From assembly GCA_031404815.1 (NCBI GenBank), contig JANNIH010000013.1, positions 45,196-109,195 on the forward strand: DNA of 64,000 nucleotides. Reading direction: 5' to 3'. Within the stretch, counting starts at the first letter, position 1. Each line of letters opens with the position of its first letter. The notes beneath the pieces were generated by a model that was not told the origin of the DNA, searched no databases, and worked only from the letters and a program-made list of their open reading frames with translations. Positions 7 through 41,016 of the stretch are shown here, in pieces. The stretch comes from Holophagales bacterium (GTDB lineage Bacteria; Acidobacteriota; Thermoanaerobaculia; Multivoradales; UBA5704). Both the position numbers and the translations under genes were made by a program.

Positions 7-1683
7 TCACTGCAGGAACATGACGACGCGGATGTAATCGATGCTGAACACCGGGCGGAGGGTCATGGTGACCGCGACGATGCCGCGGATCTCTTGGTCG
101 CGCGTGGCCGAAACGCCGAGTTCGTAGGAGACCAGCATCTCGTCCTGCACCATCTGGGTGAGGAAGCCGTTGATCGCGGTACGCAACGCGCCACGCACCC
201 GCTCGTTGTTCAACCGGCCGATGAACGGATTGGCGGCAGAGCGCACACCGAACGAGGCGAAGTCGATGATCCGCCGCGTGGTGATCTGGCGAAACGCCGT
301 GTTGGTCGAGCTGGTGAGCCCCTGGACGATGCGGAGACCCTGGCGCTTTTCCAGAGCGAGCACCCGTGCCTTCACCATCTGTTCCAGCTCGGCGCGGGAG
401 AGGTCGTATTCGAGCCCACCTACGAAGAGCGTCTTGTTGGTCAAGGAGACATGCGCGGGCAGGCTCGACAGCAGGCCGGCCACCGCCGCCGCCGCGAACG
501 ACCCCGGCAGCGCCACATCGACCGGCGGCGAGGCCGCGCGATCGGCGGTCTTGATGCCGGGTGCCACGAAGATCACCCGATCGCTCGCGAGCGGATGGCC
601 CAAGGCCTTGGCGAGGAACGCGTCTTTGGTGGCGGCCGAGCCGCAACCGATCACGCCGATCCGGTTGCGTTGCACGAGATCCGACGAAGCGATCGCGCAA
701 TGGGCCGACAGCTCGTCGCCGAACGACTCGTCCTGGCCCGCCGCGACGATGATGTGGGCATCCTGGTTTTCGAGCAGGTCGAGGCCACCTTTGTAATCGG
801 CGCCGGCGGCACCATTACTGCCACCGACCAGGCGGTCGAAACTCGGGGTGAGGTCGAGGATCTCGTCGATGTGCGCGAGGTTTTCCACAGTGCCTTCGAC
901 CCACGCCGAGGTGGCGAGATCGCGGATCAGATCGCGCCCTGATACCACGGGGAAAACCTCTTTGGCTTCGCCGAGCCGGATCGTCACCTGCACCGCCTTG
1001 CTGCTGTCGGCCATGTAGGAGGCGATCAATTTGTCGCCCGCGGGAAGCGGGGCGTTCAACGTGACCGCACCGCTCGCGAGATCGACCACGACCTGGCCGG
1101 GATTCGGCACCACGGCTGTGTCATAGACGATTGCGAGCGGCCGATCGGAGCCGCCACCGCCCGGTCGAACGCGGATTCGGTTGCGCGAACTCTGGATCAC
1201 CAACTCGACCGCCATCTGCAACCCTTGAACGTCCTCGTCTTCGACGAACGCGTTCTCGGTCGCGGCCTCGATGCGCACTTCGAGATCGTTGCCCCAGGTG
1301 CCCGGGCTCTTGGCCACCAGCTTGACCGGCTGGCCGGAAGCGGAGGTGAGCACCCGCTCCGCGCGGGTCGCGAGGATGGTTCGAGCCGCGTCGTTGTCTT
1401 TCTCCGAGACGCGCACCGCGATCGCGGTCGTCGCGCCATGCTGGAACGCCAGCTCGAGCGCGCGGGTGAGGGTCAGCTCGTCCGCGGTCCCGCCCTGCCA
1501 GAGGTCGTACTCGCCGAAACGCGCGCGCGCCTCGGCGAAGCTTGCGAGGATGACCGGCTGATCGACCGGCCCTTTGCTCGCCGTCCCCACCACCCCGAGA
1601 TTGCCCACCGTGATCGCGGTCGGGACGATCAGTCCCTCGTCGCGAACTTCGATGGATACGCCTGGAAGCACTGTTTCGGCCAT
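7..1683 (-). CDS. Contractile tail sheath protein (phage/eCIS-type). 559 aa from ATG at 1681-1683. The upstream in-frame ORF extension to 1866 has no RBS.
   Basis: The C-terminus ...EIRGIVAVTMTLRPVFSIDYIRVVMFLQ matches the conserved sheath C-terminal fold. Length and composition are typical of sheaths. RBS AAGGAG lies 7 nt upstream of the ATG. The gene abuts the window edge, so the rest of the tail/CIS locus lies below coordinate 1. Confidence 0.75.
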   Translation of the reverse strand: MAETVLPGVSIEVRDEGLIVPTAITVGNLGVVGTASKGPVDQPVILASFAEARARFGEYDLWQGGTADELTLTRALELAFQHGATTAIAVRVSEKDNDAARTILATRAERVLTSASGQPVKLVAKSPGTWGNDLEVRIEAATENAFVEDEDVQGLQMAVELVIQSSRNRIRVRPGGGGSDRPLAIVYDTAVVPNPGQVVVDLASGAVTLNAPLPAGDKLIASYMADSSKAVQVTIRLGEAKEVFPVVSGRDLIRDLATSAWVEGTVENLAHIDEILDLTPSFDRLVGGSNGAAGADYKGGLDLLENQDAHIIVAAGQDESFGDELSAHCAIASSDLVQRNRIGVIGCGSAATKDAFLAKALGHPLASDRVIFVAPGIKTADRAASPPVDVALPGSFAAAAVAGLLSSLPAHVSLTNKTLFVGGLEYDLSRAELEQMVKARVLALEKRQGLRIVQGLTSSTNTAFRQITTRRIIDFASFGVRSAANPFIGRLNNERVRGALRTAINGFLTQMVQDEMLVSYELGVSATRDQEIRGIVAVTMTLRPVFSIDYIRVVMFLQ

Positions 1684-1726
1684 CTGAGATCTCCTTTCGG
1701 CCTGTTCTATTGAGAAAGCATCGGAA

Positions 1727-2761
1727 TCAAGCGCCGTGCGTGCGCAGGTAGAGCACCGCGGGATCGATCGCCCAGCCGGCAGCCGGCTGGGCGATCGAGA
1801 TCTCGAGGCGGTCGATCGATCGTGGAAGTGTGATTTCGGGGGAGAGTGCCAAGTCGCGCAGCGCATAGCGATCCGCGACCAGGTCGAGATCCCAGTCGCC
1901 CAGCTCGACCTCGTCGGTCGCTACGGCGAACAGCGCGAGAAAGTCGGCGAGCGTTGGCAAGGTCATCGAGGCGTGGGCCGAGGCCGCGAGATCGGTGAGC
2001 GAAGCGGCCACCGCCGGAGCGCCGAGCGCGCCGGTATAGGTGCGGGTGAGCGTCACCGCGACGGCGGGCGGCGCGCCGGGCAGGTAGGCGACGGCCGAGA
2101 AGCGGAGGAGGCGCCCCGGCCCGCGCAGCCGCAGCGTCGGCTGCCCTTCGCGGTCCCAACGAACGAGCGGGCCGGTGACCACCCAGGCCTCGTGGCCGCT
2201 CGGATCGAGCCCGGAGAACGGCGAATCGAGATCGGACTCGACCGGGATGCGAGAGATCAAACTCGCTGCGCCATCGACATCGCGGTAGCGGTATTCATAG
2301 AGCGCGCGGTACGAACCGGTGCGCCGAAAGCCGCCGGGCGAGGTCTCGGCGGGGGTGAGCGCACCCGGCTCGAAACGCAGGAACCCGAGCGCCCGCAGCT
2401 CTCGCCGACGGTCGAGCAACGCGGCATGCGCCGCGAGCAGGGCGGCATCCGCCCCTGCGGCATCCACCGCTTCCACCCCCACTTGGAGCCCCACGTCGAG
2501 ACGCCCCCCCTTGATCGTCGCGAACGACAATCCGCCAGGGTTCTCCAAGCCGACCAGGTTCGAAAGCCCCACCGATTTGGGTGTCGCCTCGGTCACGGAG
2601 ACCGTCGGCAAGGGCGCGGGCAGGCTTGCGAGCTGGGCCGAAACCCCGCCCACCAAACCGGCCAAAACATCCGCAAACAGCGGCGTCGCATTCCCAGGAA
2701 TCAGCACGGCCAGAGTCCTCCCCTTGGCGCATCCCAGAGTCGCGCTCATAAGTCCGGTCAC
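1727..2761 (-). CDS. Hypothetical protein co-transcribed upstream of the sheath (344 aa; GTG at 2761 or ATG at 2749).
   Basis: Long ORF on the same strand, 44 nt upstream of the sheath start. No family recognised by eye. Protein-like composition. Confidence 0.45.
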   Translation of the reverse strand: MTGLMSATLGCAKGRTLAVLIPGNATPLFADVLAGLVGGVSAQLASLPAPLPTVSVTEATPKSVGLSNLVGLENPGGLSFATIKGGRLDVGLQVGVEAVDAAGADAALLAAHAALLDRRRELRALGFLRFEPGALTPAETSPGGFRRTGSYRALYEYRYRDVDGAASLISRIPVESDLDSPFSGLDPSGHEAWVVTGPLVRWDREGQPTLRLRGPGRLLRFSAVAYLPGAPPAVAVTLTRTYTGALGAPAVAASLTDLAASAHASMTLPTLADFLALFAVATDEVELGDWDLDLVADRYALRDLALSPEITLPRSIDRLEISIAQPAAGWAIDPAVLYLRTHGA

Positions 2762-9677: not shown

Positions 9678-10253
9678 TTGAGAGAAGCCACGATCACCCA
9701 ACTGCTCGTGCTGTGGAGCTCGGGAGACCGGGAGGCGGCGGAGCAGGTCCTCCCCTTGGTCTATGAAAAGCTGCGCAGCATCGCGTCCCGTCAGCTCCGC
9801 CTGGAGCGGGATGACCACACGCTTCAGCCAACCGCCATCGTGCATGAGGCCTACCTCCACCTGGTCGAGCAGGCGGGCCTGGATTGGCCGAGCCGGGCCC
9901 ACTTCTTCGCCTTCTCGGCGCGCCTGATCCGCCGCATCCTCGTCGACTATGCCCGACACCGGAACCGGGCCAAGCGGGGAGGTTTGAGCCGGAAGGTGAT
10001 GCTTCGCGAGATGGCGGACCTGGCGCTGGAGAAGAGTCCCGACCTGGTGGCCCTGGACGAGGCTCTCTCTGCCCTGGAAAAGGCCGATCCGCGCAAGGCG
10101 GCCGTCGTCGAGCTGAAGTTCTTCGGCGGGCTCACCCTCGACGAGATCGCCGAGCAGCTCGCGATTTCGCCCGAGACCGTGAGCCGCGAATGGCGCCGCG
10201 CCAGGGCCTGGCTCTACCGGGCGTTGCAGCCGAGCGCGGCGGCCAAAGCCTGA
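9678..10253 (+). CDS. ECF sigma-70 factor, TIGR02999-like subgroup (the type usually paired with Ser/Thr kinases). TTG start.
   Basis: ITQLLVLWSSGDREAAEQVLPLVYEKLRSIA is the hallmark N-terminus of this ECF group. Carries a sigma-4 HTH. Lies directly upstream of a Ser/Thr kinase. Confidence 0.8.
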   Translation: MREATITQLLVLWSSGDREAAEQVLPLVYEKLRSIASRQLRLERDDHTLQPTAIVHEAYLHLVEQAGLDWPSRAHFFAFSARLIRRILVDYARHRNRAKRGGLSRKVMLREMADLALEKSPDLVALDEALSALEKADPRKAAVVELKFFGGLTLDEIAEQLAISPETVSREWRRARAWLYRALQPSAAAKA

Positions 10254-10274: not shown

Positions 10275-13028
10275 ATGGAACCCGAATGGAACGAGGTGGA
10301 CCGCCTGTTCGCGGAGGCCCTGGACCGCCCGACCGCGGAGCGGCCGGCCTTTCTCGACACCGCATGCGCCGGGGACGCCGCCCTCCGCGGTGAAGTGGAG
10401 CAGTTGCTCGCCGCCGATGCAGAGGGGTGCGGTTTTCTGGAGAGCCCGCCGGACGAGCTGCTGCGGCTGACCCTCGATGCCGATGAGGAAGGCGGCAGCC
10501 TCGGCCCGTACCGGCTGCTGCAAAAGATCGGCAGCGGCGGCATGGGGACCGTGTATCTCGCCCGCCGGGAGGACGAGCACTACCGGCGCGATGTCGCCAT
10601 CAAAGTGCTCCGCTCCGGCCTGGCCAGCACCCAGGCCGTCCACCGCTTCGTCGCCGAACGGCAGATCCTGGCCCGCCTGGAGCATCCCAACATCGCCCGT
10701 CTCTACGACGGCGGCAGCACGGACGACGGCCGCCCCTATCTCGTCATGGAGCTGGTCGATGGGCTGCCCGTCGACCAGTACTGCGACCACCACCGGCTGA
10801 CCCTCAACCGGCGCCTCCTGCTGTTCCAGAAGATCTGCGCCGCCGTCCAGTACGCCCACCAGAACCTGCTGGTCCACCGCGACCTCAAACCCGCCAACAT
10901 CCTGATCACTCCCGAGGGGGAGCCCAAACTGCTCGACTTCGGCATCGCAAAGCAGCTCGCACCGGAAGTGGACGACACCCTGCTCCATACCCGGATCGGG
11001 TTTCAGCTCCTGACCCCCCGCTACGCCAGCCCCGAACAGGTCCGGGGCACCGCGATCACCACGGCGAGCGACATCTACTCTCTCGGTGTCCTCCTCTACG
11101 AGATCCTGGCGGGCCGCAGCCCTTACCCGGCCTTGGTGGAGCCGCGGTACGAAATCGAGCGCGCCATTTGCGAAGAGGAGCCGGAACGCCCCAGCCTGGC
11201 CCTGTTCCGGCCGGGACCGCCGAGCGTGAAAGAGATCGCCGCGGCCCGCAAGCTGCTGCCTCAAGCCCTTGCCCACCGGCTGAGCGGCGATCTCGACAAC
11301 GTCGCCCTGATGGCGTTGCGCAAGGATCCCCGGCGACGGTACGGCTCGGCCGAACAGCTCTCCCGCGACCTGGAAAGGCATCTGCGGGACCTCCCCGTCA
11401 CCGCCCGCCCCGACACCCTGCGCTACCGGTCGCGGAAATTCGTGCGCCGCCACCGCGCGGCGGTCGCGGCGACGGCGGCCATGGTGCTGCTCGCGGCAGG
11501 CTTCATCGCGAGCCTGGTCGTCCGGGGGCGCCAGCTCAACCGGGAGCGCGACAAGGCCCGCTATGCGCTCTCCTTCCTGGTGGATACCTTCAAGCAGGCC
11601 GATCCGTATCACACCCAGGGAGAGAGGCTCACGGCCCGCGAGATCCTCGATCAAGGGGCGAGCCGCATCTCGCGCGAGCTCACCGGCCAGCCGGACGTGC
11701 AGGCGGCCGTGATGGACGCGATCGGCGTGGTCAATCTCGGCCTGGGACGCTACGATCAGGCCGAGCCGCTCCTCGCCCGCTCCCTGGCGCTGCGCCGGCA
11801 GGTGTCCGGTCCCAACTCTCTGGACGTGGCGGACAGCCTGGAGCACCTCGCCGAGCTGCGCAACGAGCGCTCCGACCGAACCGGCGCGGAAACGCACCTG
11901 CGGGAGGCTCTCGCCATCCGGCGGCTCCACCAGGGCGACAACGACCTGGCCGTGGCCAGGACCCTCAACCGGCTCGGAGCGACTCTCGTCGAACCAGGCG
12001 TCTCTCCCGAGGCCGCGCCAGCGATCGAGGCGATCCACCGGGAGGCCCTCACCATCGCCCGTCGCGCCGAACGGCCCGAGGGCCTCACCGTGGCCGAGAC
12101 CTTTTTCGCCCTCGCGCATCTGCAACAGGCCCAGGGGAGCTACGCCGAAGCGGAGAGACTCTTCAGGGAGGGGCTGGCCATCGAACGCAAAGCTCTGGGA
12201 GACCGGGACCCGCGGCTCTACCGCGACCAGGCAGAGCTCAGCGCGATCCTGCTCGATGCGGGCAAGCTCAAAGAGGCGGAGGCCGTCCTGCGGCCCTGCC
12301 TCGCGCGGCAACGGACGATCCTCAGCCGCGCGCATCCGGACCTGATGACCACGCTGAACAATCTGGCCGTGGTTCTCGACCAGCAGGGCCGGCACACCGA
12401 GGCGGAGGCCGTGCATCGCGAGCTGCTGGCCCTGGCGCACTCGACCTTTGGTTCTGCCCACTGGCGGGTGGCCACCGCCCTCGTCCACCTGGCATCGAAC
12501 CTCGAGGGCCAGGGCAGGGGCAAGGAAGCGAGCGCCCTGTTTGAACAGGGGCTGGAGATCCGGCGCCGGACGCTCGGCGAGAAGGACTGGCAGACGGGTC
12601 AGGTCCTGCTGCTCCTCGCCCAGGCCTACCGCAATGACGGACAGTTCCTCAAAGCGCTTGGGCTCGCGTTGGAGGCCCATGCGATTCTCGAAGCCGGGGA
12701 AGGGCCGGATCACCCCTACGTAGCGCATGCGCTGCGAGAGATCGGAAGAAACTATCTGCTCCAGGACCGCTTCACAGAGGCGGAGCCCTACCTGCGCCGC
12801 TCCCTGGAAATCCGACGCCAGAAGCTTGCAGCCCGCCATCCCGATCTCGCCAAGGCCGAGGTCTCTCTGGCGCGATGCCTGATCGGGCAGGGTCGCCCCG
12901 AGGAGGCGGTTGCTCTGCTGCGGGATGCACGGACCACCTTCATCGCGGTGTATGGGCAAGACCACGAACTCTCCCAGGTGCCCGGCGACCTGCTGGCCGA
13001 GATCGAGCGCGCCCGCGCCAAGCCGTAG
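10275..13028 (+). CDS. Ser/Thr protein kinase with C-terminal TPR repeats (917 aa).
   Basis: GSGGMGTVYLARR...AIK and HRDLKPANIL kinase motifs. TM helix and long TPR region. Strong RBS AAGGAGGAGGA. Confidence 0.85.
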   Translation: MEPEWNEVDRLFAEALDRPTAERPAFLDTACAGDAALRGEVEQLLAADAEGCGFLESPPDELLRLTLDADEEGGSLGPYRLLQKIGSGGMGTVYLARREDEHYRRDVAIKVLRSGLASTQAVHRFVAERQILARLEHPNIARLYDGGSTDDGRPYLVMELVDGLPVDQYCDHHRLTLNRRLLLFQKICAAVQYAHQNLLVHRDLKPANILITPEGEPKLLDFGIAKQLAPEVDDTLLHTRIGFQLLTPRYASPEQVRGTAITTASDIYSLGVLLYEILAGRSPYPALVEPRYEIERAICEEEPERPSLALFRPGPPSVKEIAAARKLLPQALAHRLSGDLDNVALMALRKDPRRRYGSAEQLSRDLERHLRDLPVTARPDTLRYRSRKFVRRHRAAVAATAAMVLLAAGFIASLVVRGRQLNRERDKARYALSFLVDTFKQADPYHTQGERLTAREILDQGASRISRELTGQPDVQAAVMDAIGVVNLGLGRYDQAEPLLARSLALRRQVSGPNSLDVADSLEHLAELRNERSDRTGAETHLREALAIRRLHQGDNDLAVARTLNRLGATLVEPGVSPEAAPAIEAIHREALTIARRAERPEGLTVAETFFALAHLQQAQGSYAEAERLFREGLAIERKALGDRDPRLYRDQAELSAILLDAGKLKEAEAVLRPCLARQRTILSRAHPDLMTTLNNLAVVLDQQGRHTEAEAVHRELLALAHSTFGSAHWRVATALVHLASNLEGQGRGKEASALFEQGLEIRRRTLGEKDWQTGQVLLLLAQAYRNDGQFLKALGLALEAHAILEAGEGPDHPYVAHALREIGRNYLLQDRFTEAEPYLRRSLEIRRQKLAARHPDLAKAEVSLARCLIGQGRPEEAVALLRDARTTFIAVYGQDHELSQVPGDLLAEIERARAKP

Positions 13029-13194
13029 CCGGGTGAAGACTCTGCCGCGCTATGGCGCTTAAGGCGGCCAGGGCATCTCGCGGGATCGGTTCGCCGCAAA
13101 GATCCTTGCTTCGCAGTGACGGACTTCGCCAAACGATCTCGCATCTCCCTGCAGTTCGCCCCTCTGGGGCGCCATACGCAAGGAGAACCGACCC

Positions 13195-15559
13195 ATGAGA
13201 AACACGAAGCTGTTAACTCTCGCCTGTCTGGCCGTCCTGGCGACCATGAATGCCGCCTCCGTCGCCGGGCAACCGACGGAATCGACCGCTCCACTGCGGC
13301 TTTACACCCTCGACAGCAACCCCCTCGAAAGGGCCGCGGAGGGGTCGAGAACCGACGAGCTCGTTCCGGACGCCGCCGAGGAGTTCGCCATCGACCTCGA
13401 CCCGCAGGCCGTCGCCGACAATCCGCCCTCATTCCTCCTCGATCTTCCCGACGGGCGCACCTTGAAGGCCGTCCGCACCCGCTTCGTCGAGTATCGGGAG
13501 GATTGGAAGAGCTGGGTCGGCTTCGCGCGCGAAGTCGGCAACAAGAAGTCCAAGGCCGGTTTCATCCATCTCGGATATCACGGCGAGCAGCTCACCGCGG
13601 TGATTGATTTAGCGGGCGAACGGTACCGGATCGTCGGCGGCTTCGAGGACAGCCATCGCCTGGTCCGGCTCTCCGATGAGAAGGGACCGCTGTCCTGCGC
13701 GTTCGACGACGCGCAGGGTCTTGGTAAGGCGATGCTCGCAGCCGAAAGCGCCGCCGAGACCGAGGCACCGACCGAGACCGAGGCCGCCGCGCTCACCGCC
13801 AACCGCGTCGATGTCCTCGCCGTCTACCCCAAGGCCTTCTTCAGCACGGGCGCCGCGGAAGAGTCGGGGCTCTTCACCTTCATTCAGGATTCGATCTCGC
13901 TGGCCAACACGGTGTTCGCGAACAGCCAGGTCGACACGAGCTACAACCTGGTCGGCATCGTGCCGATCAAAGGCGTCGCTCAGCCGTCGGGTGGTATCTT
14001 CAACGCCCTGACGTGGTTGAATGGCCTGCCCTCGGAGGTCACGACCCTGCGCAACGCCTTCGGCGCCGACGTGGTGACCATCTACGTCCCGTTTTCCTGG
14101 AATGCCAACAACTACTGCGGCGTCGCCAATCTGCCCCAGAACAACAACACGTTCCTCGCGCCCAGTGGCACGGTGAATGCGCCGATGGGTGACAAGGCGT
14201 TCACCGCCAACCGGAACGCCTGCGGCCAAGGCGATTTCACGCTGGGCCACGAGATCGGCCACAACTACGGCATGTACCACGGTGACCAAGCGGCATCCTC
14301 GCTGGCGATATACCCGTACGCCCGGGGCAAACTCATCACGGTGGGCGGGGTGACCAAGGCTACCGTCATGCACTGCGTCTGCCCGACGGGGGGTTGCTTC
14401 GTCGGGAGCGGCTCCACCTGCAACCGGATCCCCCACTTCTCCGATCCGAACATCTTCTACCTGGGAGTTGCGACAGGCATGGCCGACCGCAACAACGCCC
14501 TGGCGGCCCGGAATGCGACTCCGATCTACGCCGGCTTCAAGCCACAGAGCACGAACACTCCCCCCAACGCCAACTTCACCACCTCCTGCTCCGGCGGCAC
14601 CTGCACCTTCAACGCCGGCTCCTCGACCGACAACACCGCGCTCCCGTCGAACGGCTACTGGTGGGACTTCGGCGACGGCACTACGGGCACGGGCGTGAGC
14701 ACGAGCCACTTCTATCAGACCGCCGGCTCCTACCGGGTCCACCTGGTGGTGACCGACGGCAACGGGACGACCGGCCAGACCGATGTCGCGTGGGGCTCCG
14801 TCAACCCGTCGCCGCTCTATGAGGGCTACCACGACATCGCGAATTGCCGCGACATCTCCGGCTGGGCCTGGGACCAGGGAAGCCCCAACACTGCGGTCAA
14901 CGTCGACATCCATCGGGACGGCACCAAGGTCTCGACCGTGCTGGCGGGGCCTCTTCCGCCAGGATCTCCTGAACGCCGGCAAGGGGAACGGCTATCACGG
15001 CTTCGGCTACTTCCCGAACAGCACGTGGAAGGACGGCCAGTGGCACACGGCCACCATCAAGTACACCGGATCGGGCGCAAACCTGAGCACGACCCCCAGG
15101 AGCGTGATCTGTGCCGTGAGCTGCTTGCCCGGCCTGACGCCCACGGAGAACCTCGACACGGCGGGCATCGTCTACACCGTCGCGACGCAGTTCAGCTCAA
15201 CCCATTCCGGATTCCTCACACACCTTCGCTTCTACAGGGCGCCCGGAGAGACCGGTACCAACGTCGGCACGCTCTGGTCCAATAGCGGCACCCAGCTCGC
15301 GCAAGCGACCTTCCCCAGCAGCCCGACCTCGGGCTGGGTCGAGGTCACAATCTCGCCTGTGGCCATCACGGCGGGAACCCTCTACCGCGTCGGAGTCAAC
15401 ACCAACGTCCGGCAATCCAAGACCGGGTGCGGCATCGGCTCGGGCATCACGAACCAGGTCCTGACCGCCCACTCGGGATACTGGATCGCCGGCAACGGCG
15501 TCTTCCCGACCACTGGAAGTTGCAGCAACTTCTTCGTGGACGTGAAGTTCGATCTTTAA
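13195..15559 (+). CDS. Secreted M12B/reprolysin-like zinc metallopeptidase with PKD and C-terminal DUF4082-like domains. A +1 frameshift sits near 14945 (G-run), so this is either a sequencing error or a pseudogene.
   Basis: Signal peptide. HEIGHNYGMYHGD is a metzincin HExxHxxGxxH motif. PKD segment GYWWDFGDGTTGTGVSTSHFYQTAGSYRVHLVVTDGNGTTG. The frame then switches (STVLAG | GLFRQDLLNAGKGNGYHG...) and continues into a DUF4082-like segment (LRFYRAPGETGTNVGTLWSNSGTQLA...GWVEV). RBS AAGGAGAA. Confidence 0.6.
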
Positions 15560-15609
15560 AAGAATCGCTCTCGGTAAGGCCGGCCCTCTCCGGGCGAAAG
15601 GAGTACACC

Positions 15610-15783
15610 ATGGAGAAGAAGCAAGCGCAGAAGATATCCACCCTCACCCTGCGGACCGAAACCCTCCGCCGGCTCGACGATGCGCATCTGCCGGGAGTGG
15701 CCGGAGGAGGGAGGCTCCGCGTCCCCATCGGCTTCGCGAACGACACCACCCCGCTTTACGACGACGACACGACCGGCGGTTGA
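15610..15783 (+). CDS. GG-leader peptide, a putative RiPP/bacteriocin-type precursor (57 aa).
   Basis: MEKKQAQKISTLTLRTETLRRLDDAHLPGVAGGG + RLRVPIGFANDTTPLYDDDTTGG. The leader fits the K-rich LxLxxETLRxLxx...VxGG pattern of double-glycine natural-product precursors. RBS AAAGGAG. Confidence 0.4.
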   Translation: MEKKQAQKISTLTLRTETLRRLDDAHLPGVAGGGRLRVPIGFANDTTPLYDDDTTGG

Positions 15784-15946
15784 AACCCGCCGCGATGTGC
15801 CTCGGGATCGCCCTGCCGATCGGCAGGGTGCTTCCGAGGCGCACGTTCCCTAGGACCCTCCCTGCACCCACGCAAGAATATTCGCCTGATGGCATCGCCG
15901 ACCCGCGGCTCGGGCCGACTCGTATCATCATTGCGACCGAAACAAC

Positions 15947-15975
15947 GGGTGTGAGGCCGGCCGGTCCTCACACCC
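15947..15975. terminator. Perfect 10-bp-stem hairpin (GGGTGTGAGG-CCGGCCGGT-CCTCACACCC) between convergent genes.
   Basis: Perfect inverted repeat read directly. It is 3' to both 15610-15783 (+) and 16002-16388 (-). No U-tract, so if it terminates it is intrinsic-like but atypical. Confidence 0.35.
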
Positions 15976-16001
15976 GCGGCCATCAACAGGAAGGCGACGG
16001 C

Positions 16002-16388
16002 TTACCCGATCTCGACCGCCGGATCGGCCGGGCGCACCGTCTTCGCGGCTTGATCAGCTCGGCGGTTCCGGGGGCGGATCGGCGAGACTCGGAACTGCAC
16101 CAGGCGCTCGCTCTTCGTGCCGAGAATGGACTTGGTCACACCGCGCAGGCGACGCGCCATCTCGCGACCTTGAGTGATCATCTCCCGCAGATCCTGGGTG
16201 GCTTCCTGCCGCCTGGCCGTGCAGGAGTCCTGCCGTGCCTTCTGCGCCCGAACCCGCGCCAGGGCCGCCACCAGCGCCTCCCGCTGCGGCTGCGCCCCGG
16301 CCTGGACGCCCTCATTGTCGTTGGTCGCTTCGAGCAGCAGCTCCCAATCTCGAACGATGTCGGAAAAAGAACTGGGAATGGTCGCCAT
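16002..16388 (-). CDS. Hypothetical protein (128 aa from MATIPSSFSDIVRDW...).
   Basis: RBS GAGGAAGG precedes the internal ATG. No family recognised. Confidence 0.4.
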   Translation of the reverse strand: MATIPSSFSDIVRDWELLLEATNDNEGVQAGAQPQREALVAALARVRAQKARQDSCTARRQEATQDLREMITQGREMARRLRGVTKSILGTKSERLVQFRVSPIRPRNRRADQAAKTVRPADPAVEIG

Positions 16389-16594: not shown

Positions 16595-17330
16595 AGCCAG
16601 CTCGCGACGGCTCCCAGCCAGCTCGCGACAGCTCCCATCTGGCTCGCAACGGTCGCCAGCCGGAGCGGAGCCGCCCAAGGTCTCTTTGAGCGTCTCGGAG
16701 CCGGTTCGCGACGTTCGCGAGCGAGATCGGAGAGACCGCGAGCGGGTTGCGAGCCTCTCCGATCGAGATGGGAGAGGCTCCGAGCTGGAGCGCAGCCTCC
16801 CCCAGCCGGCTCGGAGCCTTCCAAGGTAGGTTGGAGCCTCAGCGAGCCGGCTCGCGACCATCGCGAGCCGGCTCTCTGACCCCCAGATCTGGCTGCGAGC
16901 CGCTCCCATCCGGCTCGCGGAGTGTCCGAGCCCGCTCGGAACCGCTCAATAGGGGGGTGGGCGGCTGCGAGCCCGCTCGCGAAGGCTCAGAACCCGCTGC
17001 GAACCGCTCACAACCCGCTCGCAGTCGCTGCGAGCCGGCTCGGGGTCTCCCCCATCCGGATGGGAGAGGCTCAGAACCGGATGGGAACCGCTCAAATCGA
17101 GGTTGGGAGGTTGCGAGCGAGTTCGCGATGGCTCGCAGCCCGCTGGCAATCGCTCCGAGCGAGATGCAGACCGCGCCGAGCCCGCTCGGAATCGCTTCGA
17201 GCAAAGTGCCGACCGCGCCGAGTTGGATGCGACAGGCTTTAGTTGAGCCGCCGACGACCGCGAGCCGGCTTCGAGCCCTTGCGAGACTGAAGTCGCCGAG
17301 TGGGAACCGCGCTGCGAGGGGGCGACCCTC
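16595..17330. repeat. Degenerate tandem array of about 35 units of 21 bp (core CGCGAGCCGGCTCGCG, which is palindromic). Phase is strictly conserved with no indels.
   Basis: Manual segmentation shows every unit is exactly 21 nt and carries ...CCGGCTCGCGA...CGCTC... variants. The region is stop-free in several frames and yields only low-complexity heptad translations. No start codon with an RBS. Confidence 0.6.
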
Positions 17331-17359
17331 CTGACCCTCGATCTCGCCCTGGCCGCCAG

Positions 17360-17445
17360 CCACCCGACCGAGAATTGAAGATCGCGCGCAGGCGCGTGAA
17401 GGAGTTGCAAGATGGTTGATCTGAAGCACAACCCGATCCGGCAAA
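17360..17445 (+). repeat. Duplicated fragment of the higB 3' end and higA 5' end. About 95% identical to 18747-18822, with an orphan 12-codon higA start (MVDLKHNPIRQTT*).
   Basis: GAGAATTGAAGATCGCGCGCAGGCGCGTGAAGGAG..CAAGATGG.TGATCTGAAGCACA.CCCGATCCGGCA is shared, with 4 mismatches in about 75 nt. Confidence 0.6.
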
Positions 17446-17482
17446 CCACTTAAGTTAGGCCCCCCCCCCTGTGCAAGCTTCT

Positions 17483-18115
17483 TCAGCAGCAGCAGCACGG
17501 ACGCGCGGCCATTCCCCAGTGCGTGAGCTTGTTCTTGCCGATCACGGTCGCCTTTCCCGTCGCGACGTTGATGTCCACGAGCTCACCATTCGCGGTCGTC
17601 CCGTACAAACGGCAACCGAAGAAAGCCAAGCCGTAGACCGTGCTCAGCCCGGTGGAACCGATCAGGGTCGCCTGGTTCGTGGTGAGATTGATCTGCGCCA
17701 GGGACACCGAGCCTCCCGAATTCAACGCCCCAAAGAGAACGTCGTTCGAGTCGAAAGCCAGGTCGCCGCTGGAGGAAAGCCCGGGACCGTAGTTTCCTGG
17801 CACCGGCATTCCAGCTCCTGTGACCGGATTGAGCTTGACCAACTGAGTGGCGCCTGCGGCGTAGATCGTGCCGTCGGAGTGCACGGCCAGTCCGTTGGTC
17901 GTCGAACCCGTCGCGCCGACGACGGTCCCCTTTCCGGTATCGGGGTTGAGCTTCAAGAGTTGAGAGAAGCTCACCCCATACAAGGTCGGGCCATGAAACG
18001 CGATGTCCGTAACGTTGGCGATCGTCACCGGCCCGACGGCGTTCGGCGAAGCGGTCGCGGGATCGATGGTGTAGAGGGTGCTGGTCGGATCTACGACGTA
18101 GAGGCATTTGGACAT
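17483..18115 (-). CDS. Secreted beta-propeller (NHL-like) repeat protein ending in CCCC (210 aa).
   Basis: Repeated xGxLYxV/DG blades. RBS GGGGAGAA. The stop codon is followed directly by a G10/C10 homopolymer at 17460-17469. Confidence 0.5.
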   Translation of the reverse strand: MSKCLYVVDPTSTLYTIDPATASPNAVGPVTIANVTDIAFHGPTLYGVSFSQLLKLNPDTGKGTVVGATGSTTNGLAVHSDGTIYAAGATQLVKLNPVTGAGMPVPGNYGPGLSSSGDLAFDSNDVLFGALNSGGSVSLAQINLTTNQATLIGSTGLSTVYGLAFFGCRLYGTTANGELVDINVATGKATVIGKNKLTHWGMAARPCCCC

Positions 18116-18254
18116 GACGGGTTCTCCCCGAAGCGAGACCGGATGATTCCGACCTCGCTTGGGTATTCGCTTCGAGGGTCAGGATTCTGACTTTGCGACG
18201 CGACAGCCTCAATCGCGCTCTCTCTCGGTTCGGCTGGCACCTACTCGGGAACCA

Positions 18255-18449
18255 TCAGGCGGCGCTGCGGCGGCGAGGAATCGGACGGAGATCCTTCTCC
18301 GTACCGCCGATCCGGACCAGCCATGGTGCGCTTTCGAGAGCGATAAGCGCCTCCAAACCAGAACGAACGAGCGCGGTCTTCTCGCTGACGCCGGTCAGTT
18401 GCGCGGCCTGCTCCAGAAGCTGCTCGTCGATCTCCAGCGTCGTTCTCAT
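18255..18449 (-). CDS. vapB: VapB-type (MRTTLEIDEQLL...) antitoxin, orphan: no cognate PIN toxin gene.
   Basis: MRTTLEIDEQLLEQAAQLTGVSEKTALVRSGLEALI matches the VapB-family antitoxin. No PIN-domain ORF downstream on the same strand. Confidence 0.5.
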   Translation of the reverse strand: MRTTLEIDEQLLEQAAQLTGVSEKTALVRSGLEALIALESAPWLVRIGGTEKDLRPIPRRRSAA

Positions 18450-18509
18450 ATGCACATCCTCCGGGAGATCATCGACGATGGAAGGGAGCGCGCGATGGCA
18501 GACGCATCG

Positions 18510-18527
18510 GTTGCGGCCGGTTAGCGT
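18510..18527. promoter_or_regulatory. Inverted repeat GTTAGC-N6-GCTAAC, a putative autoregulatory operator immediately upstream of higB.
   Basis: Perfect 6-bp half-sites about 20 nt upstream of the higB start, which is the usual position of TA operators. Confidence 0.3.
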
Positions 18528-18545
18528 TTCTGCTAACTTCGAGGT

Positions 18546-18800
18546 GTGGCGTTTGAGATCGAGTACTTCCACGAGCGGATTCTCGCAGAGATTGAGGCGT
18601 GGCCTGTAGACGTTTTGGCGGACTACGCACGGCTCCTGGAGTTGCTGGCAGCCTACGGTCCCAGCCTGCGCCTGCCTCACTCGCGCGCTATGGGCAACGG
18701 CCTATTCGAGCTGCGGCCACGCGGTCGATCCGGTATCGGCCGAGCGAGAATTGAAGATCGCGCGCAGGCGCGTGAAGGAGCTCCAAGATGGCTGATCTGA
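18546..18800 (+). pseudogene. higB: HigB/Gp49-like (DUF891) RelE-superfamily toxin with an in-frame internal deletion of about 25 aa. It is missing the core between ...GIGRA and the C-terminal IE.RA.AR tail.
   Basis: The N-terminus FEIEYFHERILAEIE...LADYARLLELLAAYGPSLRLPHSRAMGNGLFELRPRGRSGIGRA is typical of this toxin family. The expected LY..VVLHAF.KK.QKTP segment is absent (84 aa versus about 105-110). GTG start. Confidence 0.5.
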
Positions 18801-19099
18801 AGCACAGCCCGATCCGGCACGATCATGAAGCCTTCTTGGCGAAAGCAAGACTTCGCAAAGGTTTCAGCGAAGCCTATGAAGCTCTCGATCTCGAGTACCA
18901 GGTCGTCGGCCAGCTGCTCAAGGCACGCGAACGCGCAGGACTGACTCAAGACGCGGTCGCCGAGCGGATGGGCACCACAAAGAGCGCGATCTCGCGTCTG
19001 GAATCTGCCGGGAAGCATGCGCCGTCTCTCTCGACGCTCCGGCGTTATGCCCAAGCCGTAGGCTGCGACATTCAGGTCAAGCTGGTACCGCAGAAGTGA
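18788..19099 (+). CDS. higA: HigA-type HTH (XRE) antitoxin.
   Basis: HTH segment LTQDAVAERMGTTKSAISRLES. Overlaps the higB stop. RBS GAAGGAG. Confidence 0.75.
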   Translation: MADLKHSPIRHDHEAFLAKARLRKGFSEAYEALDLEYQVVGQLLKARERAGLTQDAVAERMGTTKSAISRLESAGKHAPSLSTLRRYAQAVGCDIQVKLVPQK

Positions 19100-19172
19100 C
19101 GCTGGGCTCGCCTCCGCGGTCAATGAGCCTCGAGTTCCTGCCACGGTAGACGGGAGCCACAACGGAGCGCCA

Positions 19173-19470
19173 ATGCCTCTCGATCTCCAAGCCACCGCCG
19201 ATCTCAACCGCGACGCCATCGTTCGTCGGCTGCGAGAGAGCTACCCCGAAATCAATGCGCGTTTCGGGGTCCGGCGGATGGGGCTGTTCGGATCGTTTGC
19301 GAGCGACACGGCGAACGAAACCAGCGACGTGGATCTGATCGTCAATTTCGAGCGGCCCATCGGCCTGGGGTTCGTCGAGCTGGTCGAGTACCTGGAGACT
19401 CTCGGACGTTTCGGCGATCTCGGCCGCTACGAGTGCCGAGCTGGTGCTCGGCGTTCCCGGGGGTACTTAC
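19173..19470 (+). CDS. Nucleotidyltransferase (MNT-type, antitoxin of HEPN/MNT modules). The 3' end is uncertain: the reading frame runs on abnormally to 19682, and no HEPN partner is present.
   Basis: GLFGSFASDTANETSDVDLIVNF is the GS...DxD NTase motif. After ...VEYLETLGR the sequence no longer resembles MNT proteins and overlaps convergent brnA. Confidence 0.55.
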
Positions 19471-19721
19471 GCGGCTTGGGTTTTCCGCTTGCGAGCGGGG
19501 CGAGCGGTCTCGGCGGCGACATCCACCAGCAGACGGAGAGCCCTGTTGACCGCTTCGGAAGTCGGGAATGCCTTCGCTACATCAGGGTCCAGGACGGCGA
19601 TGTTGCTGTCGGCCATAACGCGTTCGTAGTACTTTCCCCGCACCCCCTCCCCGAGGGTCGCGAGATCGTATTCCGGGCGTAGCTCGTCCTCGGCTCTCTT
19701 AGTTGTTTTCTTGGTAGCCAT
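19467..19721 (-). CDS. BrnA-like antitoxin (84 aa).
   Basis: EYDLATLGEGVRGKYYER...LDPDVAKAFPTSEAVNRALR is the conserved core of BrnA-family antitoxins. Lies immediately downstream of a brnT remnant. Confidence 0.5.
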   Translation of the reverse strand: MATKKTTKRAEDELRPEYDLATLGEGVRGKYYERVMADSNIAVLDPDVAKAFPTSEAVNRALRLLVDVAAETARPARKRKTQAA

Positions 19722-19866
19722 GGCTTTCTCGTCTCGTGGTCAGCCTCGCCGGATCGGCAAACGTCAGAGCCAAGGGATCAAGGAACAGGGTCGCCGGCTC
19801 AGGGAAGGACACCCCATGTTTGCGGAGGTTGCTCGCCGCCTTTCTCCGGTCCCATTCGAAGAACAC
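19699..19866 (-). pseudogene. BrnT (DUF497) toxin remnant. Only the N-terminal roughly 50 aa remain (VFFEWDRRKAASNLRKHGVSFPEPATLFLDPLALTFADP...).
   Basis: FEWD..K...N..KHGVSF.E....F.DP is the BrnT N-terminal signature. The ORF stops after 55 codons inside the brnA start region, whereas full-length BrnT is about 90-100 aa. Confidence 0.45.
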
Positions 19867-20188
19867 CTTGCTATTGTAGCCCCAGAGGCCTCATCTCGAC
19901 GCCCGCGAACGCCTTAGCCAAAGCCGGCCACTTCGAGTGCCGAGCTTGTGCTTAAGCGGGTCGAGGTTCACGAGAGCGAACAGGAGCGGCACCTGGTCCA
20001 CCCGGGCGAGGAACTCACCGCGCCGGGGATCCTGCGCAATCCCGTGCCCGTAAATGCGCTCTTCGACCGCGGCTTCGGCTGACGAGATCTTCTCCGACTA
20101 GTGAGCGTCGCCCCCGGGGCGGCAGGCCTTTCGCCTTCCCGAGCCCAGAAGGCACCCGCCCGACGCCGAATACTCCGAAACTTTCTCC

Positions 20189-20440
20189 GTCGGGCACGAG
20201 ACATTTAGCGTCGGGCCGAAGAGAATCGACGTCGGGGTCGAGGGAATCTACGCCGGGTAGATAAGAACCCACGTCGGGTAGATAAGAACCCACGCCGGGT
20301 AGATGAGAATCGCAGCCGGGGTCGTGCCCATCGTCGTTGGGGTCGAGGTATTCTTCGATGAGCGCACAAGAATCTCCAGAGGGCGCACGATAATCTGCGC
20401 CGGGTTCGGGCGAATCGGCGGTTCGGGCGAAAGAATCGAC
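20189..20440. repeat. Second 21-bp-periodic degenerate tandem array (12 units; consensus GYCGGG-N6-7-AGAATC-NAC).
   Basis: Consecutive 21-nt units are gtcgggccgaagagaatcgac, gtcggggtcgagggaatctac, gccgggtagataagaacccac, gtcgggtagataagaacccac, gccgggtagatgagaatcgca, and so on. Lies 3' of the E2 gene. Confidence 0.55.
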
Positions 20441-26496: not shown

Positions 26497-26682
26497 TTAG
26501 CGGCAGATGCAGACCGAAATCGGACCGCAGGAGTCGGTGCACTGGGCGGAGGTGGTACATACGGTAGGGTTGACGGTGCAGTTCGAGGTCGCTCCACCCG
26601 CAACCTCGAGCATGTCGAAGTTGTTCAGACGGCGCACGGTCTCTGCACTCAGGGCCAGTTTCTTGTCGCGCTTCGATTTCAT
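26497..26682 (-). CDS. GG-leader, Cys/Thr/Ser-rich RiPP-like precursor peptide (61 aa).
   Basis: MKSKRDKKLALSAETVRRLNNFDMLEVAGG | ATSNCTVNPTVCTTSAQCTDSCGPISVCICR. RBS AGGGGA. Same leader architecture as 15610-15783. Confidence 0.5.
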   Translation of the reverse strand: MKSKRDKKLALSAETVRRLNNFDMLEVAGGATSNCTVNPTVCTTSAQCTDSCGPISVCICR

Positions 26683-36204: not shown

Positions 36205-38001
36205 TCAAGCGACCGCGAGAGCCGGGACAGGCTCCAGCGTCGGTTCGGGCACCGCGGAGCGGCTCGACACAGGGCTTGGCGCACCGAGCGCCCGGCGGAG
36301 AATCATCGGATCGAAGCCCCACTCCATCTCTCCGGGAATCGCGCGCGCCTCGTCCCAGGCCGCTCCGAGCGCCACCGGATCGAAACGGAGATGTTCGAGG
36401 TCGATCCGCTCCACGAACGCGCGGCTCGAGAAGACCTCTGCGGTGCCGAGCACCGTCGAGGCCACTTGGGCCACCGTGTAGCGCGCCTGGATCTCAAGCG
36501 ATGAGAGCGCCCGGTCGAGCACGCCGCGCGCCTCGACCGGGTGGAGGCCGATCTTGTAGAACGACTGCTCCGCTTCGCGCAAGGGCCCGATCGACGGAAA
36601 GTCGAAGAAGATCGGCGCCCTGGGCGCAGGCAGACCCGCGGTCAATTTCCAGCGCTGGAACTCGGCGAGGAAGGTCTGCAACCCCAGATTCCACGGCCCG
36701 AGCTTGGCGAACCGGCGCAGAAACGAGGGGAGGAAGATCGGGTCGGTGAACAGGTCGTTGATGAACGGAAAGACATAGAAATTGAAGTAGATCGACAGCT
36801 CCCATGCGTAGCGGAGGGTGAACGCCTCCTGGTCACCGAGCGTGTTGTACGACAGCAGGTAGCTCGGCACGTACGCCTCGTAGAGACCGCGGGCGAGCGT
36901 TTCGTACAAGCGCACCTTGGTCGCGAGCAGCCCACCATCTGTGGTGCGGATCGCGTCGGTGATCAACGTGTTGTGGACCGCGATCAGGTCGCCCCCCGGG
37001 CTGTAGAGCGGATCGGAGAATCGGCACGCCTCGCCGGTGAGCGCCCACCGCTCGTTCGACAAGGTCTGCCGGCAGTCGTGGGCGAAGCTCACGAAACCGG
37101 AACCGTCGAAGATCTTCCGTTGCGGCAGGTCGCGGGCGAAGAGCGGAAACTCACGGCAGATCCAGGCCACCAGCTTCTCCGGGCTGGACACCTCGGCGCG
37201 GTGGATCTTTTGGGAGTCGTAGACCAAGCCGAGGCTGGTCTTGCCGTGCAGCGGGATGACCCAGAACCAGAAACCGTCGCCGCAGAAGTGGTTGGTGGCC
37301 AAGAAGGTCGGCATGTGGCCGAGCGCCGCGCGGTCCGGGCGCTTGCGGATCTCTCCCGCCGACAGATCGGTGAGCTTCTCAGGATCGAGCAACCCTTCGA
37401 CCCAGAAGAACGAGGTGCCATGGCGGATCGGGCTCTCGGCCAGCAGGCCGAGCTTCTTGGCCAGGAAGCGCCGACGCCCCGACGCATCGACCACCCAGCG
37501 CGCTCGTCCCTCGACCCGCTCGCCGTCGGCCGCGGTGTAGCTGAACTCGTGGCGCGCGTCGCCGGCCCCCATTTCGACTTCCAGCCCCGAGATCGGAGCG
37601 GCCAGGGTGAAGCGCGGATCGGCCGCATTCACCCGCAGCAACTCGGCCTCCAGGAGGTTCCGGTCGAGCTGGTAGGTCGCGATGTTCGAGACCGATTTGA
37701 TGTACGACTGGCTGTACCCCTCAGCGCGATCTTCGAGGCCCGGCACTTTCCACCAGAAGCGGAGGTTGTACTTCAAGTAGTGCTGCCGCAGCAGATGCTC
37801 TTCCAACTCGAGCACGCGCGAAAAGTAATAGCCGGAGACCTGCACCGTCGCCTCGCCCACCTTCTGCTTCTCGGGCGGCACCGCTCGACGATCGACCAGG
37901 TGGACCGAAGGGACGCCTTCTAGCAACAGCTGGCGAGCGAGCGACAGGCCGGCGAGACCGGCCCCGACGATCAGGACGTCGCAGTCGAGGGTTCGTGTCA
38001 T
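36205..38001 (-). CDS. Flavin-dependent halogenase (tryptophan-halogenase family).
   Basis: GAGLAGLSLA FAD fold plus the diagnostic GDGFWFWVIP (WxWxIP) motif. Confidence 0.75.
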   Translation of the reverse strand: MTRTLDCDVLIVGAGLAGLSLARQLLLEGVPSVHLVDRRAVPPEKQKVGEATVQVSGYYFSRVLELEEHLLRQHYLKYNLRFWWKVPGLEDRAEGYSQSYIKSVSNIATYQLDRNLLEAELLRVNAADPRFTLAAPISGLEVEMGAGDARHEFSYTAADGERVEGRARWVVDASGRRRFLAKKLGLLAESPIRHGTSFFWVEGLLDPEKLTDLSAGEIRKRPDRAALGHMPTFLATNHFCGDGFWFWVIPLHGKTSLGLVYDSQKIHRAEVSSPEKLVAWICREFPLFARDLPQRKIFDGSGFVSFAHDCRQTLSNERWALTGEACRFSDPLYSPGGDLIAVHNTLITDAIRTTDGGLLATKVRLYETLARGLYEAYVPSYLLSYNTLGDQEAFTLRYAWELSIYFNFYVFPFINDLFTDPIFLPSFLRRFAKLGPWNLGLQTFLAEFQRWKLTAGLPAPRAPIFFDFPSIGPLREAEQSFYKIGLHPVEARGVLDRALSSLEIQARYTVAQVASTVLGTAEVFSSRAFVERIDLEHLRFDPVALGAAWDEARAIPGEMEWGFDPMILRRALGAPSPVSSRSAVPEPTLEPVPALAVA

Positions 38002-38053
38002 GGCGGTCCCTTTCTGCTCGAACCCCTTGAGGAGGAGTCCGAGGGCAAGTTCG

Positions 38054-39292
38054 TTACGCGTCGGGCGCCCCGACCAACAGCGCCATCACCGGTCCGTCGG
38101 CCGAGACCGAGGTCGCGAGCGCGAGCGCGCCGGGCCGCACGGAGATCTGTTGCACCGCAGCCGAAACGCCGCCGAGCGGGAATCCGTCGTCGGTCGCTTC
38201 GAGCCCGATGACCCCCGGTAGACGCCCGTCGGCCAAGGAAGCGATCAGACTCATCACTTGGAACACGCCAGAGGCCCCGAGAGCTTCCCCCAACCTCGAT
38301 TTGATCGCGGCGACCGGTAGATCCAACCCGTTACCCGAGCCGCTCTCAAGCCCCCGGGCGATCCCCGCGGCCTCGAACCGGTCGAGATCGCGCGCACCGC
38401 TCGCGCCGGAACCGACGCAACAGAGGTCGGCGCGCAAGGCGCCGCGATCCGCGAAAGCGGCGTCGATCGCCCGTGCGAGCGCGCCGGCCAGATCCTCGCT
38501 CCGGTCCGGCGCGAACGCCGCGCCGCTCCCCGCGATCCGCGCCAAGACCGTGGCACCACGCGCCGCCGCCACCTCGGCCGCTTCGAGCACCAGCAACCCC
38601 GCCCCTTCCGCAGGCACAAAACCGGTGCGCCGTCGGTCGAACGGAATTGAGACTCCCCCAAGGCCGGCGAGCCGCCCGGCGCGCGAATAGGCGAGCGCCG
38701 ATTCGAAGCAGAGCTCCTCCACCCCACCCGCGAGCACCACATCGGTCTGGCCGGTGCGGATCAGGTCGGCGGCGTAGGCGATCGCCTGAAGCCCGGAAGT
38801 CTCCCCGCCGCCGAGTGTCGAGTTGACTCCGGAGAAGCCGTGCCAGATCGCCGCCTGGCCGGCTGCGGCGTTGATCACACTGTTGGCGAAATCGAACGGG
38901 GAGACGTAGTTCGGTCCGAGCTTCAAGCCGCGGCGGTCGAACTCGGCGATCGTGTGCATGCTGCAGTAGGTCGTGCCGACCACCAGCGACAGCTCGCGCC
39001 CGCCGCGCGCCTCAGGGCTCCAGCCGGAATGTTCGAGCGCGCGGGTGGCCGCCGAGATCAACAGCCGCGAGGTCCGGTCGAGCGGCCGCAGGTTCCGGTC
39101 GCCCAAATAGCGTTCCGGCTCGAACGGCCGGATCTCGCCGCCCACCTGGGTCGTGAGCAGGCTCGAATCGAACAACTCGATCGGGCCGATCCCGCTCTGC
39201 CCGCCGAGCAGCGCCTCGTGCACCGCGCCCAACTCGTCGCCGAGCGGCGAAAGCAGGCCGATCCCGGTGACCACGACCGCGCGCTCAGACAC
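38054..39292 (-). CDS. Ketosynthase-like protein lacking the active-site Cys (chain-length-factor-like, KS-beta).
   Basis: Thiolase fold. Where KS-alpha has TACAAG this protein has GGETSG, with Cys replaced by Glu. Translationally coupled to KS-alpha. Confidence 0.65.
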   Translation of the reverse strand: MSERAVVVTGIGLLSPLGDELGAVHEALLGGQSGIGPIELFDSSLLTTQVGGEIRPFEPERYLGDRNLRPLDRTSRLLISAATRALEHSGWSPEARGGRELSLVVGTTYCSMHTIAEFDRRGLKLGPNYVSPFDFANSVINAAAGQAAIWHGFSGVNSTLGGGETSGLQAIAYAADLIRTGQTDVVLAGGVEELCFESALAYSRAGRLAGLGGVSIPFDRRRTGFVPAEGAGLLVLEAAEVAAARGATVLARIAGSGAAFAPDRSEDLAGALARAIDAAFADRGALRADLCCVGSGASGARDLDRFEAAGIARGLESGSGNGLDLPVAAIKSRLGEALGASGVFQVMSLIASLADGRLPGVIGLEATDDGFPLGGVSAAVQQISVRPGALALATSVSADGPVMALLVGAPDA

Positions 39293-40794: not shown

Positions 40795-41016
40795 TGACTT
40801 CCTCCTGGTTGCCCGGTCGCACCCCGTTTGCCGGCGAATCCTAGGCCTCTTCCGCTCGGAAGTGAATCTTCTCTAGCGTCGGAAGGTCCTTTGAAATAAG
40901 GACTTGCGCGTCTCGTCCCCAAAATTTCACCATCCCGCCAGAGAGAGGCTCCGGGGCGGCGCGAAGCGTTACACGCACCCCGCTATCCGGGAAATCTCGG
41001 TTCAGGACCCAAGGGC

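Follow-up and report, generated by a model that had tools for sequence, protein, structure and literature searches.

ECF43 sigma factors act through phosphorylation by a kinase; their region 2.2 is devoid of the acidic DAED motif and carries a phospho-acceptor threonine in a STTA or QTTA sequence (PMC8999054, PMC13147305). Described pairs of such a sigma factor with a Hanks kinase are EcfK-PknS from Xanthomonas citri and EcfP-PknT from Vibrio parahaemolyticus, whose known regulons are the T6SS and polymyxin resistance. To our knowledge, very few ECF43-type sigma/kinase pairs have an established input signal or regulon. Another group of described systems is that of the PCAT/AMS peptides (ComC, class II bacteriocins, LahT substrates), in which a leader of ~33 residues ending in Gly-Gly, with hydrophobic residues at -4, -7, -12 and -15 and no Sec signal, precedes a short released peptide. 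The groove of the C39 protease docks leader residues -4, -7 and -12 (PMC6363468). Class I LanA leaders from Bacteroidetes follow the pattern LxLxKx5L...GG (PMC7268733), and RaxX from Xanthomonas is a GG-leader precursor of 60 residues that RaxST sulfates and RaxB exports (bioRxiv 10.1101/442517, PMC6637879). In the literature searched, we found no description linking GG-leader peptides with ECF43-type sigma/kinase pairs.

We analyzed a stretch of 64,000 nucleotides from a Holophagales bacterium, called the window hereafter, in which a small gene coding for such a peptide lies downstream of a sigma factor gene and a kinase gene (Table 1). All the evidence comes from sequence and gene context in MAG and metagenome contigs. 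We propose, with moderate confidence, that this gene encodes a GG-leader peptide which would be controlled by the sigma factor and the kinase, cleaved and exported, and would act outside the cell.

Table 1. Features of the peptide locus and of the second leader-bearing peptide; positions are those of the window.
Feature	Positions	Strand	Description
ECF sigma factor	9678-10253	+	191 aa; TIGR02999 / PF07638 type, ECF43-like
Hanks-type Ser/Thr kinase	10275-13028	+	917 aa; Pfam Pkinase and TPR_12/TPR_10
Promoter-like motif	13117-13147	+	TGACGGACTT-N13-CGCATCTC; 48 nt 5' of the metallopeptidase ATG
Secreted metallopeptidase	13195-15559	+	Signal peptide, M12B/reprolysin-like HExxH domain, PKD, DUF4082
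Ribosome-binding site (RBS)	15598-15603	+	AAGGAG, six bases 5' of the ATG; from sequence
Peptide gene	15610-15783	+	57 aa, MEKKQAQKISTLTLRTETLRRLDDAHLPGVAGGGRLRVPIGFANDTTPLYDDDTTGG, and stop codon
Leader	15610-15708	+	Residues 1-33, MEKKQAQKISTLTLRTETLRRLDDAHLPGVAGG; predicted cleavage after G32-G33
Predicted released peptide	15709-15783	+	Residues 34-57, GRLRVPIGFANDTTPLYDDDTTGG, and stop codon; Cys-free, net charge -2
GC-rich hairpin	15792-15846	+	Directly 3' of the peptide stop codon; no U tract
Peptide 2	26497-26682	-	61 aa, Cys-rich, double-glycine leader; separate family and genomic context

An earlier note on this DNA had pointed to the small ORF and to its good RBS, and the coordinates, the translation and the position of the AAGGAG were all borne out. 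A single-sequence search returned 15 close homologues conserved over their full length, a profile search ~175 homologue clusters, and an exhaustive HMM search among 1.84 billion representative proteins 68 matches, ~40 of which are full length. Short as the ORF is, in a genome at 66% GC where chance ORFs are many, and devoid of a Pfam match, one would suspect a spurious reading frame in high-GC intergenic DNA. There is virtually no chance that this suspicion is right, and the conservation data have already ruled it out: start codon, reading frame and stop codon are shared by the ~175 homologue clusters, and the AGGAG of the RBS keeps its position across the family in an alignment of the upstream DNA. 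Moreover, among 29 gene copies from ten loci, pS exceeds pN in inter-locus pairs (0.50 versus 0.27), dN/dS is 0.2-0.55 in most pairs involving the window gene, and paralogues form tandem arrays that hold 2 to 12 copies per locus, with as many as 12 near-identical ones. We conclude that the small ORF is a genuine gene, coding and conserved.

The peptides belong to an undescribed family of Acidobacteria, whose named carriers are Thermoanaerobaculia (Acidobacteriota) wherever the sources give a name. Because the family is rare and the patterns required an exact match, scans found it at only one locus in genome contigs and at three in metagenome contigs. Pfam gave no match for the window peptide, peptide 2 or six relatives, and a profile search against PDB sequences returned nothing meaningful for the peptide. 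Four relatives (P0120, P0136, P0172 and P0174) carry the precomputed Pfam label PF28317.1, of which we found no mention in the literature searched.

The N-terminal part of the peptide reads as a double-glycine leader of the PCAT, export type. Like the leaders of PCAT/AMS peptides, it comprises ~33 residues ending in Gly-Gly, has no Sec signal and precedes a short peptide. If cleavage occurs after G33, then V30, L27, L22 and L19 fall at -4, -7, -12 and -15, and the family columns at these hydrophobic docking positions are 77-96% conserved; at the GG site itself, the first column is G in 96% of the sequences and the second G in 84% or A in 12%. The window leader also fits the pattern LxLx(K/T)x5L...GG. 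The double-glycine leader of the earlier note is thus upheld by the GG site, the spaced hydrophobic residues and this pattern. Unlike in PCAT/AMS peptides, Glu at -8 is not conserved: the ComA-type consensus (L-12 x3 E-8 L-7) is not followed at this position, which is His26 in the window peptide and E (33%), Q (28%) or K (13%) in the family. Further differences are the lack of a nearby C39/ABC gene and a cargo that is acidic, devoid of Cys and almost without variation across the family.

The sole leader model matched is NCBIfam NF038153 (lant_leader_L1a), with 16.8 bits versus a cutoff of 22; its positions 2-32 of 32 align to residues 3-33 and end at G32-G33. This model also matches 69 of 108 relatives at E<=0.01 (1.7e-8 for the best of them). 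The NHLP, Nif11 and TIGR04149 models gave no match to either window peptide at E<=10, and TIGR04149 matched only 2 of the 108 relatives, weakly. The search of leader models suggested by the earlier note therefore gave a match, below cutoff, to a class I lanthipeptide model, and none to the three models named there; paralogous ORFs bearing the leader are abundant. The outcome that the earlier note had named as refuting did not occur. The same type of leader precedes unrelated Cys-rich cores in other peptides, as expected of a generic export or recognition signal.

The earlier note had also related the leader to that of a second, Cys-rich precursor. Peptide 2 does share it, since it scores 20.8 bits on NF038153 (cutoff 22) and an HMM of the first family matches its leader region at E=7e-5. 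Relatives of peptide 2 are named 'class I lanthipeptide' by PGAP. Its surroundings are syntenic in relatives, with a DeoC aldolase gene on one side and an MBL-fold gene plus a 2-oxoacid dehydrogenase operon on the other. No copy of the promoter-like motif described below accompanies peptide 2, and neither LanB nor LanC is encoded within 10 kb of it. We consider peptide 2 a better candidate for the class I lanthipeptide label than the first window peptide. As side observations, the MBL gene and an E3/E1a/E1b/E2 operon lie on one side of peptide 2, opposite the DeoC gene, in the window and in L016, L017 and L018, the peptide 2 gene is duplicated in tandem in L016 and L017, and a HicAB pair is inserted beside it in the lineage of the window. 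Between the two peptide loci we noted an island (16600-20200) rich in genes of toxin-antitoxin type: VapB, a DUF4394-like gene, and an HTH gene paired with a nucleotidyltransferase gene.

We observed a further class of GG-leader peptides, of the form MKKNKTK..QKRK.RRLSLNRETI...ARGG followed by a short Cys-containing core, at L006 2510-2677(-) and 6309-6485(-), L010 3787-3975(-), and L022 2642-2866(-) and 5888-6103(-). These genes are convergent and lie directly after kinases, namely three of the PD40 type and two upstream kinase-like genes, and have no copy of the TGACGGACTT motif.

The predicted released peptide is acidic (net charge -2) and Cys-free, in agreement with the earlier note. Cores across the family are 22-26 residues long, their net charge lies between -2 and -3, and R[IL][RW]xPxG[FY]xDDTTPIY is a nearly invariant motif in them. 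Among 147 full-length members, the conservation of the columns after GG is R 92%, P 99%, G 97%, D 81%, D 84%, T 95%, T 85%, P 94%, I 76% and Y 87%. Judging from this alignment, the "core" is not a variable cargo. The earlier note had seen the peptide as one of several dispersed substrates; a generic substrate with an arbitrary core is not supported by these data, in which conservation of the Cys-free core equals or exceeds that of the leader. An AlphaFold model with 108 sequences was confident for residues 41-50 only, where a small hairpin appears, which is weak evidence. Three relatives (P0041, P0052 and P0074) contain two core units in one precursor, so that processing between the cores is implied.

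Our Pfam scan of the window covered nearly all ORFs longer than 200 aa and the called genes of 16.5-36.7 kb (~45 ORFs/genes), ORFs in 59.9-64 kb being inspected by eye only; no C39 peptidase, ABC exporter, LanB/C/M, radical-SAM, YcaO or ATP-grasp protein was found, consistent with what the earlier note had reported. We then compared nine independent loci with upstream DNA (window/L001, L006, L007, L010, L012, L014, L020, L021 and L022). Within ~10 kb of the peptide in these loci (less at contig ends), no C39/ABC exporter and no LanB/LanC is encoded either. Any exporter or protease must thus act in trans, and on this point the earlier note, which had suggested processing by a system encoded elsewhere, is supported.

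This brings us to the possibility, favored by the earlier note, that the peptide is a RiPP precursor and one of several dispersed substrates, whose leader would recruit remote enzymes, for example a LanB dehydrating the Thr-Thr pair, before cleavage at GG. The leader is indeed homologous to lant_leader_L1a, 'class I lanthipeptide' is the PGAP name for relatives of peptide 2, both Thr of the TT pair are invariant, and RiPPs are typically encoded as multi-core precursors or in gene arrays, as seen here. A close described comparison is with class I lanthipeptides (NF038153; pinensin-type in Bacteroidetes), with which the window peptide shares a homologous leader, the LxLx(K/T)x5L motif and the GG end. 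However, Cys is present in only 2 of ~140 family cores, so that thioether rings are impossible in all the others; the NF038153 score is below the cutoff of the model; LanB/C/M, rSAM, YcaO and ATP-grasp genes are absent from the 64 kb and from ~10 kb (less at contig ends) of the nine loci; and its near invariance sets the core apart from most RiPP cargo. We therefore regard a RiPP precursor as rather unlikely. The window peptide itself is not a lanthipeptide, because its core has no Cys and LanB/LanC genes are missing from the window and the nine loci. Graspetides (microviridin, marinostatin, and the multi-core plesiocin or chryseoviridin) were considered as well, since their cores are likewise rich in Thr and Asp, some relatives of our peptide are likewise multi-core, and a protease gene adjoins in some loci. 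They were rejected: unlike in graspetide systems, no ATP-grasp domain was detected in any scanned gene of the window or of the nine loci.

The conserved tyrosine of the core calls for another comparison. Like RaxX, the precursor has ~60 residues and a GG leader, its Tyr lies beside acidic residues, and the released peptide is conserved, as for a signal rather than a toxin. One could imagine that the Tyr of PIYDD is sulfated by a PAPS-dependent sulfotransferase and that the peptide is exported through a GG-dependent transporter. Supporting this idea, the Tyr is 87% conserved and flanked by Asp, and the window encodes a PF13469 sulfotransferase (41928-42959). Yet this gene, the nearest of its kind, is 26 kb away in an unrelated-looking cluster, with NoeE as its best, weak NCBIfam match; no sulfotransferase is found near the peptide in any of the nine loci; no PCAT gene is adjacent, unlike in the RaxX-RaxST-RaxB system; and the core does not resemble RaxX or PSY in sequence. 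We thus set a RaxX-type peptide aside as very improbable. The region that contains the sulfotransferase gene (36205-44623) also encodes a FAD oxidoreductase, an RPE65-like oxygenase, two ketosynthase-like proteins, an EamA transporter and a flavin monooxygenase, and looks like a small-molecule biosynthetic cluster.

The earlier note had overlooked the most informative neighbors, namely the ECF sigma factor, the Ser/Thr kinase and the promoter-like motif shared between loci. By sequence, the two regulators match an ECF43-type sigma/PknS-type kinase module. The sigma factor scores 208 bits on NCBIfam TIGR02999 (cutoff 126), a family that, with PF07638, we take to be equivalent to the ECF43 group. 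Its region 2.2 reads HTLQPTAIVHEAY, in which the acidic DAED motif is absent and the Thr is kept; this region is QPTA in the window and QATA in L010, L012 and L021. The kinase gene begins 21 nt after the sigma stop codon. The kinase displays an N-terminal extension of 78 aa, a kinase domain at residues 79-358, a single hydrophobic transmembrane segment (AAVAATAAMVLLAAGFIASLVV, from sequence) and then a C-terminal TPR region of ~500 aa. Its best PDB match is 9EED, the structure of PknS 1-364 (E=2.5e-55), and the match spans query residues 4-370, N-terminal extension included. The module therefore resembles EcfK-PknS and EcfP-PknT in its TIGR02999 sigma factor, with QPTA replacing DAED, and in its kinase with an N-terminal extension, a transmembrane helix and C-terminal TPRs, PknS being the best PDB match. 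It differs from them in that the linked genes are those of GG-leader peptides and of DUF4082 secreted proteins. At the edge of the window, ~8 kb from the sigma/kinase pair, a gene for a phage tail sheath-like protein (7-1866(-); Phage_sheath_1, Phage_sheath_1C) may be part of a contractile injection system.

A gene for a transmembrane Hanks Ser/Thr kinase lies directly upstream of the peptide gene or array in all nine loci. Depending on the locus, the C-terminal domain of the kinase is TPR or PD40. A TIGR02999/PF07638 sigma gene is present 5' of the kinase in the window, L010, L012, L014 and L021. In L020 (6717-7150), the sigma gene located 5' of the kinase is truncated to 39 aa, and an ORF built from VSRTG[AI]D repeats lies 5' of it. 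That kinases with differing sensor domains precede a single peptide family counts against the explanation that we prefer.

The constant proximity of a kinase raises the question of whether the peptide could be its intracellular substrate or partner, phosphorylated on DDTTP or modulating the kinase or the sigma factor, and never exported. Besides the adjacency in nine loci out of nine, this would be in line with the invariant Thr-Thr-Pro flanked by Asp, with a weak similarity of the kinase to the kinase domains of class III/IV lanthionine synthetases, and with ECF43 systems having no known anti-sigma factor. The N-terminal half of the peptide is, however, an export-type GG leader common to unrelated Cys-rich cargo, and arrays of 10-12 copies would be odd for a stoichiometric regulator. 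As to the LanL/LanKC similarity, it is generic to kinase domains (80 bits versus a cutoff of 650) and no lyase gene accompanies it. Such an intracellular role thus seems improbable to us.

The promoter-like motif provides the second element for our proposal that the peptide gene is an output of the module. The window contains one exact match, versus 0.05 expected at up to 3 mismatches. In nine loci, the motif occurs at a set distance before peptide and DUF4082 genes: its onset is 67-69 nt 5' of the ATG in peptide genes with their own copy, with the exception of the first gene of the L006 array (126 nt), and 69-89 nt 5' of the genes of DUF4082 operons. Within the motif, TGACGGA and CGCA..TC are invariant, while the sequence 5' of it and its flanks are unconserved. 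The spacing of GGAC...CATC is compatible with ECF-type -35 and -10 elements; the link with the neighboring sigma factor is suggested by position only. The motif is absent 5' of the sigma and kinase genes themselves, and a sigma-70 promoter scan was uninformative. A short GCCC...GGGC stem-loop is also seen between motif and RBS, at 13155-13175 in the window and in the equivalent 5' UTRs of most loci.

In the window, the peptidase and peptide genes most likely form one transcription unit, since the only copy of the motif precedes the peptidase, the 50-nt spacer between the two genes is motif-free and the hairpin follows the peptide. The predicted RNA fold of the hairpin has an energy of -46 kcal/mol (z=-5.6), and none of 200 shuffles was as stable; in L014, each of the two peptide genes is followed by the hairpin sequence as well. 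The hairpin probably serves to terminate transcription or to stabilize the mRNA 3' end, though a simple scan for intrinsic terminators does not call it. Rfam reports no RNA family in 12900-16100.

The PKD/DUF4082 metallopeptidase that the earlier note had placed upstream of the peptide was confirmed by Pfam, which finds Reprolysin-like (M12B), PKD and DUF4082 domains, with the qualification that, in the window, an extra G near 14946 puts its gene out of frame. From tblastn and DNA alignment, the otherwise identical Logan contig L001 encodes an intact metallopeptidase (787-aa ORF), and the frameshift reflects either an error of assembly or the recent decay of the gene into a pseudogene. Relative to L001, the site (14941-14947) shows the extra G in a G-run and one adjacent substitution. 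Five loci out of nine encode a secreted DUF4082 protein next to the peptide; the N-terminal domain of this protein is M12B-like, M10-like or without a Pfam match. Single-sequence AlphaFold gave no usable model of the DUF4082 region (pLDDT 40.7).

Taken together, the adjacency of kinase and sigma factor and the motif shared with DUF4082 genes make the peptide look like a signalling output rather than a typical antibiotic precursor. Our proposal is that the adjacent ECF43-like sigma factor controls the peptide gene as part of its regulon. The extracytoplasmic TPR domain of the PknS-like kinase would sense a signal, and the kinase would phosphorylate the sigma factor and thereby switch it on. Transcription would then begin at the promoter-like motif and, in the window, yield one mRNA for peptidase and peptide ending at the hairpin. 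A C39 peptidase/ABC exporter encoded elsewhere would cut after Gly32-Gly33 and export the peptide, which, as an effector or a signal, would act extracellularly together with the secreted DUF4082 proteins under the same control. Besides the differing sensor domains, several observations count against this proposal: no C39/ABC exporter was found in the window or within ~10 kb (less at contig ends) of the nine loci, the motif does not precede the sigma and kinase genes, position -8 of the leader is His instead of Glu, the NF038153 score is below cutoff, and the peptidase gene is frameshifted in the window. We favor an abundant secreted effector over a trace signal because of the arrays of up to 12 near-identical copies and of the co-regulated secreted proteases.

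On the same basis, one would also wonder whether the core peptide could be the extracellular ligand of the TPR or PD40 domain of the kinase, in an autocrine or quorum-type loop through phosphorylation of the sigma factor; in a variant of this hypothesis, the kinase would phosphorylate the invariant DDTTP motif of the peptide. We judge such a ligand to be unlikely. If true, this would give ECF43-associated Hanks kinases their first identified class of natural ligand.

The family offers a compact and recurrent candidate regulon, in which GG-leader peptides and DUF4082 exoproteins lie behind one sharply conserved promoter-like motif. With it, the specificity of the sigma factor, signalling by the kinase and the function of the peptide become open to direct tests in a phylum that has been little studied. 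The family further shows that, in Acidobacteria, a leader under the annotation "class I lanthipeptide" serves a Cys-free and nearly invariant cargo; genome-mining pipelines would miss or mislabel such genes.
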